From a virus (taxonomy: Duplodnaviria; Heunggongvirae; Uroviricota; Caudoviricetes), in the IMG/VR virus record IMGVR_UViG_2634166457_000024, positions 1 to 12,685 of that record: a stretch of 12,685 nt of DNA. One strand, given 5' to 3'. The first letter of the stretch is position 1, and every line of letters begins with the position of its first letter. This document shows positions 6,001-9,000 of the stretch, piece after piece. The position numbers are program-made.

Positions 6001-9000
6001 CAGGACAGAGCTGTGCGACGACAATGATGCTGTCTCGCTTACCTTGTTCTCCTTCAAACAGGTAATGCTCATATTGAACTTTAAAACCTAAGTTATTGAT
6101 TTTCTCGGAAACAGCCATTGGCGGTTTCCGGATGATGTTTTTAGCAACCAGGCGTTCGATACTACGTTTAACATCTGAGTGCTGACTACCCACCAGCTCT
6201 GCGATCTCAACGCTGGTCATGGATGCTTTGCCGTTAAAAATTGCGGTGTTCACTGCCATCTCCTTACGGATAAATTCTTTTAAGATTCCGCACACTCGTA
6301 CTTATTGGTGCCGAACCTTCCTTCAGTTATCCTTTTGATCCCTATAAACAAAAGAACCAAAGGAGGTTCGACATGTCACAAAAAAACGATATTCCTGTTT
6401 TTCCTATTACAGCCTGGCAGGCTGGACCATTGCCTGGTTATGGTGCGCTAGCATTAAAATTCCAGTACCTGGCTTCCCCTATGCAACCACTGGATTCAGC
6501 ACAAGAAACTCAGTTCTTCGCGCTTACTCCCGAAATGGCTGAGACTTTGATCTCCGATCTGCGCCGACATATTGAGACGCTGAAAAAATCCGGTATTCAC
6601 AGCCCACAAGAAAACAGGCATTAATCGAAAACACGGTTGCCACATAATTTCTTGAAAAGCGTCGCGCACTGGCGCTTTTCATTTCTCTACGATCAACAAG
6701 CATGCACCTCACTTCTCCTCCCCCGTGTGCGCTAAGCTTGGATTTGAAATTTTGCGTAACGAATCAGGAATTCCATCTTCAGGGTGAGGATAAAGATCTG
6801 GCCTTAAGCCATGTGGCGTGACCTTCCATGCAACTACTTCACATACGCGTAAAACGAAACGAGCAGGAATTGTGTTTTTTGAAAACCACTGATTCACCGC
6901 TTGCGGCGTCACACCAAGATTTCGCGCTATGGCATTTTGCGCAATTAATGCACGAAGTTTGTCGTAATCATTTCCTTTCATAACAAAGCACCAATATTAA
7001 CTTTATGAATCAAGAATACATCAAGTTTAAATTAACATGCAAGTTGCAAAAGGATCGAATACACTAAAATCAAGTAAAGATTTATCCTTGTAAAGAAACC
7101 CACAGGATTTGGTCATGAAGAACGTCAAAAACACGGAAAATCGAATAGCCGCAATGCTGAAAGCAAAAGGATGGACTCAGGCTCAACTGGCCCGCAAGTT
7201 AGGTGTGAGTGCGCAATCAGTGCAGTACTGGACAACAGGAAAAACATTTCCACGGAGTGATAAGCTCGCGCATTTATCAGAGATTAGCGGTTATCCACAA
7301 TCCTGGTTCTTAGGTGAAGACTCCTCACCAACCTTTTCCTCGCAAGAGAAACACCAGACAAGAACAGATAGCGTCGTGTTTAATGTCCTTGATGTTGAGT
7401 TTAGTTGCGGTGATGGAACTCATGTCCGTGGTGACTTGATAGATGTAGTGCGCTCAATAGAACTTGATCCTGAATATGCCCGACGCCTTGTTGGAAATCG
7501 GGCATTCAAAAATATAGAAATAGGTAACGCCAGAGGAGACAGTATGGCTCCCACAATCTCACCTGGCGACCTTCTTTTTCTTGATAAGACAGTAACTTAT
7601 TTTGATGGCGATGGCATTTATGCATTTTGTTTTGATGGAGAATGCTACGTGAAAAGACTTCAAAAAATTGGAAGCAAAATCATGGTGTTATCTGATAACC
7701 CCAATTATCAACCATGGAGCATCGAAAAAGAGGGGTTAGCTCTGCTTTATATCCAGTCTAAAGTGATCTCATCAGTACCATTCAATATAAACAGATTTGG
7801 TTAGTCTTTGATTTTAACGGGCTTTGCCCGTTTTTTTCTGCCTAAAACACACGATATCAATTTTTTCTTGACAGTCTATTTCTCAAAGCATAATATCGCA
7901 CCATCAATTATAACTTGATTAAATTCAATTTAAAATTGTTGGTGGATATATGAAGACACTAAAAGCAACTCCAGAAACAACTAATTTTATCAACTGCGGC
8001 TGTGTTACGCTTAAGGGCTTAGAACTTGATTCCTTTGCATTAAATATTGCAAATTTGCTAAGTGCTGTACGCACATTCCATCTTCTGGATTGTGCTCGCT
8101 CAAAGGAACTGGGCATTGAGGTAATGGAATTTATCCATGAATATGCTCTATCTGCGGCTTCTCCTGCACAACAAAAACAATCCTTCCCTGAAAGCTGGCT
8201 GGTTAACCTTCGCACCCAACGCGAAGCCTGCGGCTTAACAACCGCCGAACTCGCCAGGCAGCTCGATCTCGATGAAGAAATTATCATCCAATGGGAGAAC
8301 GGAGAGTATGAACCAACTATCAGTATGCTTATCCCACTGGCAAATATTCTTGGCTGCGATCCGATGTGGCTGTTAACTGGTGAGGTTACTCCTCCGGAGC
8401 AACCAAAAAGTGAGGAGCAGCAACACCATGACGCATCTCAACAAGTTTGCCCCTTATCTCGCGAAGCTCTTCTACGGAAGAACCAATACCAATGGTGACA
8501 TAATCGCCGCTTCGCCCCTCAAGGTACATGCGAACATTTTTATCAATCATTGCGGAAACAGTCTCAATATGAAAACACTTCTGAGACTCACTATATAGCA
8601 GAACATATAAGTCAGCTGAGGAAGCCATGAAAAAGTTCGAAAACATAACTGTTCTCCATGTTGATAACTTTGATTATACAAACCAGGAACTTCTCCCGGA
8701 GGTTGTAAAGGCAATAGATGTTGCCGATATAGTGATTAGAGGAAAGAGAATTGTCAAAAACAGGCTCGCATGCACTTCAGGAGCAATTACAGAAACAACC
8801 TCACAGCAAGATAATTACGAAGGCATTTGTCTGGAGCCTGATTCATTTGCGGTAAATGTTTATCATTTATTGCATGCAACACAGGTATTACATATGTCCA
8901 GTAATCACGAAACGAAAACACTCGGCAGCGAAATTCTGAATTTTGCATGTGAGTATGCAAAAGCTGCTGCCGAAAATAATTAGCGCAATAACAACAAATA

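Follow-up and report, generated by a model that had tools for sequence, protein, structure and literature searches.

Comparative analysis of the window, the whole 12,685-nt stretch of DNA considered here, points to the gene for a BssS-like protein next to cro (Table 1) as a counter-oriented accessory gene, or moron, with its own expression signals, a reading that is well supported by the sequence. Morons of the Hendrix type are extra genes with their own promoter and terminator that are expressed from the prophage, bor and lom of lambda and gp15 of HK97 being examples. Like lambdoid morons, the BssS-like gene is found in some genomes and swapped out in near-identical others: in the nearest E. 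coli prophages (97-98% identical) its module gives way to an unrelated gene of 97 aa that has another terminator, and the ~70-bp leader is unchanged where the cargo differs. Aligned with E. coli 504838, the window matches base for base from Rha to the Shine-Dalgarno sequence (SD) and ATG, is unrelated after that, and matches again from TCACTTCTC, exactly at the cro stop codon. The preliminary description had proposed a moron at this place, and the cargo swap at 6376-6708, a conserved terminator and invariant promoter-like elements in the leader bear this out.

Table 1. Features of the window in and around the counter-oriented gene
Feature	Position	Strand	Remarks
Rha/antirepressor-like gene	5546-6259	-	PF09669 Phage_pRha; phrog_63 'anti-repressor Ant', E 1.5e-48
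-35-like box TTGGTG	6305-6310	+	GGTG invariant in 18 leaders; 17 nt 5' of the -10-like hexamer
Leader inverted repeat I2/long hairpin	6309-6373		Arms 6309-6323 and 6359-6373
-10-like hexamer TATCCT	6328-6333	+	Putative promoter; predicted transcription start near 6340
Shine-Dalgarno AAGGAGG	6360-6366	+	6 nt 5' of the ATG of the BssS-like gene
BssS-like CDS	6373-6624	+	ATG start, 83 aa (83 codons); PF13991, phrog_10846
Exchangeable cargo module	6376-6708		From codon 2 up to the base adjoining the cro stop codon
Intrinsic terminator of the BssS-like gene	6653-6689	+	Stem-loop 6653-6681 and T-rich tail TTTCTCT (terminator scan)
cro-like repressor gene	6709-6981	-	PF15943 YdaS_toxin, E 1.6e-12; P22_Cro, HTH_3; phrog_35
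cI-type repressor gene	7109/7115-7804	+	HTH_3 (PF01381) and Peptidase_S24 (PF00717); phrog_4

The 83-aa plus-strand gene, found between cro and the Rha-like gene where the preliminary description had placed it, is a genuine gene under purifying selection and not a chance ORF. Conservation of the reading frame, the lack of which had been named among the grounds for abandoning the moron reading, is evident: six genera contain homologues at 63-96% identity, each exactly 83 aa long, with synonymous sites saturated (pS 0.68-0.89), pN of 0.12-0.28 and dN/dS of 0.08-0.18 in the computable comparisons, and codon position 3 shows the most differences. Its SD, said to be among the strongest in the window, is the sole copy of AAGGAGG on either strand. 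In composition the gene does not stand out: its GC is 0.46, compared with 0.466 in the window as a whole, 0.45 in cro and 0.48 in Rha; deviant nucleotide composition is a frequent, not an obligatory, trait of morons. An A7 tract spans codons 3-5 (about 6380-6386), and in some E. coli copies an A8 in its place shifts the frame; such frameshifted copies are frequent in this species (L004, L025, P0001 (25 member sequences)), and because they exist the gene is dispensable. An overlapping plus-strand ORF (6305-6451, 48 aa) and two on the minus strand (6496-6669 and 6524-6712) lack support and were taken to be spurious. Of the neighbours, the cro-like gene converges with the BssS-like gene; the Rha-like gene (ATG at 6259, SD at 6266-6271), a 'Rha family transcriptional regulator' in RefSeq, diverges from it, and RefSeq classes the cI-type repressor as an XRE/LexA family regulator.

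The leader belongs to the slot rather than to any one cargo. It fronts at least eight unrelated cargo families in 118 loci, in all of which (118/118) the flanking genes lie on the minus strand, so that the cargo is always counter-oriented inside the early-right operon; the 23-nt SD/ATG block, AGAACCARAGGAGGTTCGACATG, is found in 112 viral contigs and directly precedes at least eight unrelated ORF families. Among 5426 complete E. coli genomes, 123 have the leader, only 13 have the BssS-like cargo and ~110 combine the leader with another cargo. PD-Lambda-6 is found in the same leader and slot, for example at L013:2568-2963 (PADLOC PDLC04020, E 9e-90), and searches of the other cargos against Pfam, PHROGs and PADLOC returned only this gene and phrog_4753 and phrog_36733, both of unknown function. 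No defence HMM of PADLOC-DB v2 matched the BssS-like protein or four other cargos. Three small cargos (83-aa MSFTFD..., 75-aa MDLPLS... and 72-aa MTRPIT...) were considered as divergent BssS-like proteins, an idea that found no support: hmmsearch with a 148-sequence family HMM gave E about 1.6, hhalign probabilities were 0.2-3.6%, and the AF2 model of the 83-aa MSFTFD... cargo, with strands followed by a C-terminal helix, has a pLDDT of only 55.

Comparative evidence suggests that the ~70-bp leader contains a weak sigma-70 promoter. Across 18 divergent leaders from Enterobacterales and Pseudomonas, T1, A2 and T6 of the putative -10 (TAnnnT) are invariant, and the nearby loop sequence varies. 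The hexamer appears elsewhere as TATAAT, TATTCT or TAGCTT, and the TATCCT of the window is weaker than the TATAAT of Rac-type leaders. At the 17-nt spacing the match to consensus is ~7/12, below the 9/12 required by our promoter scan, which is why the scan is silent here. An alternative -10, TATAAA (6343-6348), lacks a usable -35 and is unconserved in other leaders, and TATCCT is preferred. No cI/Cro operator copies are common to the leader and the cI-cro intergenic region, and the same leader is carried by heteroimmune prophages with RacR-type, DicA-type and S24-type repressors; immunity-specific control of the leader therefore seems unlikely.

The leader hairpin is predicted to hold the SD and ATG in its 3' arm and the -10 in its apical part. 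The same fold is predicted for 26 leader variants, and in the leader alignment it pairs 90.6% of cells, compared with 32-54% when the register is slid, four pairs showing compensatory changes. Pairing is better in the minus-strand (pR) transcript than on the plus strand: 90.6% versus 80.9% of cells pair, G.U cells number 39 versus 8, and the MFE is -29.3 kcal/mol (z -4.5) versus -20.8 kcal/mol (z -3.0). It is absent where BssS-like genes adjoin cI. An Rfam search of 5900-7200 returned no family, and a sub-threshold miRNA-precursor match merely reflects the hairpin shape.

At the other end of the gene, the hairpin with A- and T-runs noted in the preliminary description stands as a terminator of the BssS-like gene. 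Its stem (6653-6681) is flanked by A4 and T4 runs and folds in plus-strand RNA at -15.3 kcal/mol (z = -3.7), none of 200 shuffles being as stable; the stem is kept in six BssS-like homologues, with one GC-to-AU compensatory pair. The terminator accompanies the gene across genera, and a terminator of its own is expected of a moron. The further role once proposed for it, a tR1-like stop for cro transcription, is weak in the window and partial at best: on the minus strand the hairpin reaches -11.8 kcal/mol (z = -0.9), weaker because G.U pairs turn into A.C mismatches. In Pseudomonas, the hairpin 3' of the BssS-like gene faces the way that would stop transcription of cro. In the window, the terminator ends at 6681-6689 and cro has its stop codon at 6709-6711; the plus-strand transcript should therefore end 28 nt short of that codon, without overlap with cro.

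Homology and structure searches, which the preliminary description had suggested, gave the protein a family and a remote homologue, and no relative in the PDB or BFVD. It matches Pfam BssS (PF13991) with 57.7 bits against a cut-off of 27 (E 1.3e-15), passing the gathering threshold with residues 10-79 on profile positions 1-70 of 72, and phrog_10846 over its full length (E 6e-52). Pairwise BLASTP against K-12 BssS gave no alignment; hhalign paired residues 6-77 with residues 7-78 of K-12 BssS (95.3% probability, E 2.1e-8, 72 aligned columns, 22% identity), and the motifs P.FPV.GW, Y.LT..QA..L and a C-terminal H are common to the family-wide alignment. With the NCBIfam BssS equivalog NF008958 it scores 25 bits against a cut-off of 125, and the prophage proteins form their own 83-aa clade apart from the 84-aa chromosomal clade, a single-copy regulator conserved across Enterobacterales. 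Judged from these profile comparisons, its relation to E. coli BssS is one of remote homology and not of orthology. E. coli BssS (YceP, 'biofilm regulator through signal secretion') likewise has PF13991 and a single-domain length (84 versus 83 aa), but is chromosomal and adjoins dinI, whereas the BssS-like gene is prophage-borne and adjoins cro or cI. BssS has been characterised by phenotype alone (PMC3646849; PMC9634086), with effects on biofilm, motility, indole/AI-2 and colonisation (PMC3646849; Domka et al. 2006 as cited there), and 'BssS-like function' therefore predicts little. A literature lead joining BssS and prophages, in the AcrIIA22 paper, concerns the nicking enzyme Nb.BssSI.

The AF2 model (pLDDT 78.5) has three strands and a long helix, and the protein is probably soluble, with three beta strands and one helix, and oligomeric. 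The single match in a PDB sequence search was a designed repeat protein with low-complexity helix similarity, not a relative, and a BFVD fold search gave no match at E <= 0.001. The COMM fold, defined by a three-stranded sheet and a C-terminal helix that form an obligate dimer, was also compared: the COMM domain of COMMD proteins, prokaryotic COMMD-like ones included (PMC13392464), differs in having no sequence similarity to the BssS-like protein, a Pfam search gave no COMM match, Foldseek returned only a weak E-value of 0.17, and that paper does not mention BssS.

Placement is conserved well beyond E. coli. Citrobacter and Pseudomonas prophages have the order cI(+) cro(-) BssS-like(+) Rha/replication(-), the Pseudomonas protein being 29% identical, and the homologues of Atlantibacter, Tatumella, Kluyvera and Salmonella phage F1055 sit next to cI, on the side of the early-left operon and between the two. 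Lambda carries rexAB between these same elements, and sie/Abi genes are found there in several phages.

Set beside lambdoid morons, the BssS-like gene has a terminator of its own, promoter-like elements and a strong RBS, and its orientation permits expression while the lytic operons are off. It differs in lying antisense within the early-right (pR) operon as the next gene after cro, in lacking a compositional anomaly, and in that the promoter, RBS and ATG are those of the slot, common to at least eight unrelated genes, and not of the cargo. We infer promoter activity, expression in the lysogen, a protein partner and a physiological effect, and give about even chances to the full proposal, an independently transcribed moron in a conserved cro-proximal slot acting via the BssS-like protein. 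The window would then derive from a lambdoid E. coli prophage with a conserved, counter-oriented cargo slot directly 3' of cro; this slot would give the ~70-bp leader, with a weak sigma-70 promoter (xTGGTG, 17 nt, TAnnnT), consensus SD and ATG, and the BssS-like cargo would bring its own ORF and intrinsic terminator. In the lysogen, cI would shut off pR and leave the leader promoter unopposed, so that the 83-aa protein would be made; after induction, pR transcription would run head-on into that promoter. The protein would most likely act in trans, binding a host protein and altering lysogen behaviour (stress, biofilm or motility signalling), with superinfection defence as the main alternative role. 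In the pR transcript the leader would form its long hairpin just upstream of Rha or a replication gene, so that the cassette would probably also process or insulate early-right transcription.

Other readings bear on this proposal. The cassette may act in cis with the ORF as a passenger, tuning lysis/lysogeny by a pO/oop-like damping or processing of pR read-through, which we consider unlikely. Lambda oop, the precedent, is a non-coding RNA of 77 nt and overlaps cII at the 3' end of that gene; as there, a promoter would oppose pR between early regulatory and replication genes and the product would end at a hairpin, but the BssS-like transcript is protein-coding and should terminate before cro, and hence would not overlap the coding region of the upstream regulator as an oop-like RNA does. 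The constancy of slot position and orientation in the 118 loci and in Pseudomonas, the compensatory changes and better minus-strand pairing of the leader hairpin, its absence next to cI, the interchangeable cargo and the orientation of the Pseudomonas hairpin towards cro all favour action in cis, whereas the strong purifying selection on the ORF across genera, in two different slots, and the activity of PD-Lambda-6 in trans from a plasmid (PMC9519451) speak for the protein; cis and trans roles are not mutually exclusive. Lysis/lysogeny modulation by convergent transcription is kept alive as a candidate effect by the cI/cro/BssS-like order, which extends from E. coli to Pseudomonas. Counting against such modulation are the predicted end of the plus-strand transcript before cro and the free exchange of the cargo. 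Finally, the gene could be a decaying or silent passenger without current function in the window prophage, as its rarity in E. coli genomes, the common A8 variants and the weaker -10 would suggest; the window copy is nevertheless intact and has a consensus SD, the family is held at 83 aa by purifying selection across genera and the terminator is conserved, and we regard this reading as highly improbable.

An anti-phage role of the BssS-like protein, in superinfection exclusion or defence, with the cro-proximal slot as a defence hotspot, is a somewhat doubtful reading argued by analogy. Homologues adjoin cI in a rexAB-like place in the four lineages named above. The slot, with conserved flanks and many unrelated small cargos, has the hallmark of prophage defence hotspots, and the validated anti-lambda-vir gene PD-Lambda-6 shares its leader, its slot and its counter-orientation between early-right genes (PMC9519451). 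Cloned into a promoterless vector together with its 'predicted promoter', PD-Lambda-6 gave protection to E. coli K-12 (Vassallo et al. 2022, PMC9519451); clone boundaries and primers were not found in the supplement, and the promoter used may extend beyond the leader. Yet PD-Lambda-6 is unrelated in sequence, has 131 aa and a hydrophobic N-terminal segment, and has experimentally shown activity, whereas the BssS-like cargo is known from sequence. The hotspots of P2/P4 prophages similarly combine conserved flanks with highly variable cargo, validated defence genes among it (Rousset et al. 2022, PMC9122126; Vassallo et al. 2022, PMC9519451), but belong to another phage type, whereas the slot described here holds single small genes starting from one ATG behind a shared palindromic leader. 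Against a defence role stand the absence of PADLOC matches for the BssS-like protein and four other cargos and the biofilm and colonisation, rather than phage, phenotypes of the single-copy chromosomal clade; the argument is one of guilt by association.

The BssS-like gene alone is ordinary, already annotated in RefSeq as a 'bssS family protein' and behaving as a classic moron. We entertain, tentatively, a broader joint reading in which the slot is an accessory/defence hotspot with a dual-use leader, the BssS-like gene an ancient cargo and chromosomal BssS a domesticated derivative. If so, lambdoid prophages would contain an unrecognised slot conserved from Pseudomonas to Enterobacterales; its palindromic leader would be a promoter, RBS and ATG on the plus strand and, on the minus strand, a structured pR RNA element upstream of antirepressor or replication genes; the role of BssS-like proteins would lie in superinfection defence or lysis/lysogeny control; and K-12 BssS, beside dinI, would be a domesticated gene of a prophage immunity region. 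Twenty years of work on BssS have given pleiotropic biofilm phenotypes only, and the deep, position-conserved tie between BssS-like genes and the prophage cro/cI immunity module offers a concrete new context for a search for its molecular partner. As PD-Lambda-6 stands behind this same leader, no fewer than seven further small proteins without a known function, carried by hundreds of E. coli prophages, can be nominated as candidates for defence or lysogenic conversion. The shared leader itself looks like a compact natural expression cassette and, in the early-right transcript, apparently forms a structured element without a described role.

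The slot opened by the leader, the ~70-bp element preceding the BssS-like ATG, is more interesting than the BssS-like gene itself. In the closest prophages (e.g. that of Escherichia coli 504838), the sequence from Rha through the Shine-Dalgarno (SD) sequence to the ATG is identical to the window; past the ATG stand an unrelated ORF for a 97-aa hypothetical protein and a different terminator hairpin, and the match starts again exactly at the cro stop codon. Because identity ends at the ATG and restarts at that codon, the exchangeable module corresponds to 6376–6708. The preliminary description of the gene as a moron is thus well supported, the cargo (the ORF behind the leader ATG) being swapped and the leader kept.

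The leader is present in 123 of 5426 complete E. coli genomes, the BssS-like cargo in only 13. An exact scan located the 23-nt SD/ATG block AGAACCARAGGAGGTTCGACATG in 112 viral contigs, and across 118 loci examined, at least eight unrelated ORF families lie directly behind it: 151-aa MYFLKS-type (about 35 loci), 97-aa MKVQAV-type (about 31), 151-aa MSLMAV-type (about 23), 83-aa MSFTFD-type (about 17), 131-aa MDFATI (5), BssS-like (5), and a 72-aa and a 75-aa ORF (one locus each). The junction falls exactly at the ATG of the shared leader, and in every locus the recognisable flanks, which are Rha, DnaT-like or YdaU upstream and cro, ydaT or a hypothetical protein gene downstream, have the orientation opposite to that of the cargo. 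Cargos other than the BssS-like one matched no Pfam family. Rac-like prophages carry the leader at about 81% identity; it sits there between ydaT and the replication gene, is again oriented against the operon and has yet other ORFs behind it. A looser pattern also retrieved it from Xenorhabdus, Izhakiella, Salmonella and Klebsiella genomes. Overall, the leader stands in the early-right operon of lambdoid and Rac-like prophages, and is known from E. coli, Salmonella, Klebsiella, Citrobacter, Xenorhabdus and Izhakiella. The MSLMAV-type cargo overlaps a convergent 137-aa ORF by about 235 nt; the RefSeq annotation of E. coli M8 has the minus-strand ORF only, the phage record has both, and possibly only one of them is genuine.

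The leader shared by the cargo families has the layout xTGGTG, 17 nt, TAnnnT, AAGGAGG and ATG. In an alignment of 18 divergent leaders (E. coli types, Citrobacter, Klebsiella, Xenorhabdus, Izhakiella and Pseudomonas), the ATG, GGAG of the SD, positions T1, A2 and T6 of the -10-like hexamer and GGTG of the -35-like box are invariant, the remaining loop sequence being variable. The invariant boxes provide good comparative evidence for a predicted sigma-70 promoter starting near 6340, on the plus strand as proposed earlier; it is weak by consensus, and a simple scan made no call. Control by the immunity repressor is unlikely, since heteroimmune prophages have the leader in common and no repeats are shared between the leader and the cI–cro operator region.

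The whole leader forms a long imperfect inverted repeat, the 3' arm of which contains the SD and the ATG. Its predicted fold reaches -20.8 kcal/mol on the plus strand (z -3.0) and -29.3 kcal/mol on the minus strand (z -4.5); all 26 leader variants are predicted to adopt the same fold, the minus strand nearly always being the more stable. In the 18-pair outer helix, 90.6% of cells are paired, compared with 32–54% when the partner is slid by 1–3 columns. Four pairs are changed on both sides, and because all four separate Pseudomonas from enteric leaders, they represent essentially one evolutionary event. Pairing is higher on the minus than on the plus strand (90.6% versus 80.9%) owing to more G.U cells there (39 versus 8). 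Since a plus-strand transcript begun in the loop would be missing the 5' arm, the pR transcript on the minus strand is the most plausible site of action of the hairpin. No Rfam family was matched by it.

Features of the window and of compared loci (L numbers; positions without one refer to the window)
Feature	Position	Strand	Remark
Leader	6305-6375; L001:6915-6986; L011-L013:~2501-2570; also L014-L125, L127-L131		
-35-like box TTGGTG	6305-6310	+	GGTG invariant in 18 leaders; 17 nt upstream of -10
Leader repeat arms	6309-6323 / 6359-6373		
-10-like hexamer TATCCT	6328-6333	+	elsewhere TATAAT, TATTCT or TAGCTT
SD AAGGAGG	6360-6366	+	six bases 5' of ATG
BssS-like gene	6373-6624	+	83 codons
A7 tract	6380-6386		codons 3-5
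Terminator hairpin	6653-6681	+	T-rich tail
Rha/antirepressor-like gene	5546-6259	-	
cro-like gene	6709-6981	-	YdaS_toxin/P22_Cro; diverges from cI
cI-type repressor	7109/7115-7804	+	HTH_3 + Peptidase_S24
Early-left genes, xis, int	window	+	
Ash/Rha gene, replication genes, RusA, Q-like gene	window	-	
cI-slot upstream element	L002:3905-3945; L005:4905-4945; L007:4925-4960		
C4 zinc-finger gene (Salmonella phage F1055)	L002:4330-4515	-	60 aa
PD-Lambda-6 cargo	L013:2568-2963; also L094, L117, L119		131 aa
MSLMAV-type cargo	L012:2568-3023; L137:2568-3023		151 aa
ORF convergent with MSLMAV-type cargo	2788-3201 of these loci	-	137 aa
BssS-like/cro hairpin (Pseudomonas prophages)	L134-L136:~5255-5285		T-run on minus strand
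bssS-dinI (E. coli K-12 MG1655)	L126:1202-1988		

The plus-strand ORF described within the minus-strand early-right operon is present, and its strong SD is the sole such heptamer on both strands of the window. A word-indexed search returned 17 full-length relatives, all exactly 83 aa and 63–96% identical, from E. coli, Salmonella, Atlantibacter, Klebsiella, Tatumella and Kluyvera. Across six loci, third codon positions hold most differences, pS is 0.68–0.89, i.e. synonymous sites are saturated, pN is 0.12–0.28 and dN/dS, where computable, 0.08–0.18; on these comparative grounds, the ORF is a real gene. The window covers the early region of a lambdoid E. coli prophage, close relatives of which (96–98% identity) are present in numerous complete genomes of the species. 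Some E. coli copies (L004, L025; protein entry P0001, with 25 member sequences) carry A8 in place of the A7 tract and lose the frame after MSQK; RefSeq renders them as a 96–105-aa protein with the start moved upstream, where it lacks an SD. Such copies point to inactivation being frequent or, alternatively, to a switch prone to slippage.

Downstream, the hairpin to which both a terminator function for this gene and a tR1-like stop for cro had been attributed holds up in the first role: it was reported by a terminator scan and folds as plus-strand RNA at -15.3 kcal/mol (z = -3.7; none of 200 shuffles equally stable). On the minus strand, where G.U pairs turn into A.C, it reaches -11.8 kcal/mol (z = -0.9), and the cro-stop role is therefore at most partial in the window. 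The terminator is part of the cargo: in five other contexts it likewise follows the BssS-like gene, keeping the 9-bp stem and showing one GC-to-AU compensatory pair. Between the BssS-like gene and cro of the Pseudomonas prophages lies a hairpin (GGAGCGCC...GCGCTCC TTTT) whose T-run is on the minus strand, the orientation for terminating cro transcription; a plus-strand terminator (CCGCCCTGCCAGGCGG TTTTTTT) lies just 5' of the leader.

The window order, cI(+), cro(-), BssS-like(+) and Rha/ANT or replication gene(-), is also found in prophages of Citrobacter (protein P0190, for which the collection lists 135 blocks) and, with a protein of 29% identity (P0182), of Pseudomonas. The Citrobacter leader belongs to the same hairpin family; that of Pseudomonas differs in arm sequences (GTCCGGTGCATCCGTG / CACGGAGACCGGACATG) and has the same architecture. 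A different site, at the 3' end of cI and convergent with it, is used in Atlantibacter, Tatumella, Kluyvera and Salmonella phage F1055; the early-left operon borders the gene on its other side. These copies have another conserved upstream element, TGCCTGTCTTTT..CA..TCAGGCTCGGTG, about 60–95 nt before the ATG, possibly their own promoter or leader; in F1055, a ClpX-type C4 zinc-finger protein (PF06689, E 2.5e-10) is encoded between the BssS-like gene and cI. In every case examined, the gene adjoins and converges with an immunity repressor gene. The pattern points to a role connected with lysogeny, which might lie in the physiology of the host, in keeping out other phages or in the switch.

The 83-aa protein matches Pfam BssS (PF13991; 57.7 bits, cut-off 27) and, end to end, phrog_10846, and identical copies are named 'bssS family protein' in RefSeq. 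BLASTP gave no alignment with K-12 BssS, and the protein reaches 25 bits against the NCBIfam BssS equivalog (cut-off 125); profile–profile comparison aligned residues 6–77 with 7–78 of K-12 BssS (95.3% probability, 22% identity); kinship to the namesake is remote. An exhaustive HMM search yielded only 140 cluster representatives at E <= 1e-3, and the family profile 662 proteins in three groups: 83-aa enterobacterial prophage proteins, 80–82-aa proteins of Pseudomonas, Burkholderiales and others, and the 84-aa chromosomal 'biofilm formation regulator BssS'. The AlphaFold model (pLDDT 78.5) predicts beta strands 12–19, 26–32 and 45–51 and a long helix 53–73; sequence search found no relative of solved structure. 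BssS is characterised by phenotypes only, namely biofilm, indole/AI-2 and gut colonisation resistance (PMC3646849) and, in Dickeya, biofilm and motility under ArcA control (PMC9634086). Lambdoid prophages, too, often carry dinI-type genes, and the position of chromosomal bssS, which directly adjoins dinI in E. coli K-12 MG1655, would thus fit a prophage origin of both.

The architecture is very probably that of a moron cassette, whose transcription under pR repression would start at the leader promoter and end at its own terminator. The product would be a small soluble BssS-family protein with a trans-acting role, for which binding to a host protein is the likeliest mode; modulation of host behaviour is the leading, though tentative, proposal for its function. 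Anti-phage defence is a somewhat less likely alternative. The slot may be a defence hotspot, since one of the ORFs that share the leader, the 131-aa cargo, was identified by PADLOC over its full length (E 9e-90) as PD-Lambda-6, whose defence against lambda has been validated by experiment; PADLOC models matched this cargo alone, neither the BssS-like nor the remaining ones. A mainly cis-regulatory role of the cassette, compatible with the other readings, is improbable. On the pR transcript, the leader hairpin stands just before the ribosome-binding site of Rha or the replication gene (3–4 nt in Rac-type loci), where it might conceivably serve RNase III-type processing or insulation; the BssS-like genes next to cI have no such hairpin, which therefore belongs to the slot and not the gene.

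The BssS-like gene was already annotated, and the BssS family and morons are known kinds. In the literature searched, we found no description of the shared palindromic leader, of the cargo diversity including PD-Lambda-6, or of the conserved cro–BssS-like synteny reaching Pseudomonas. The nearest precedent for a counter-promoter in that part of the operon is lambda pO/oop, from which the BssS-like transcript would differ in being coding and in its predicted stop 28 nt short of cro.
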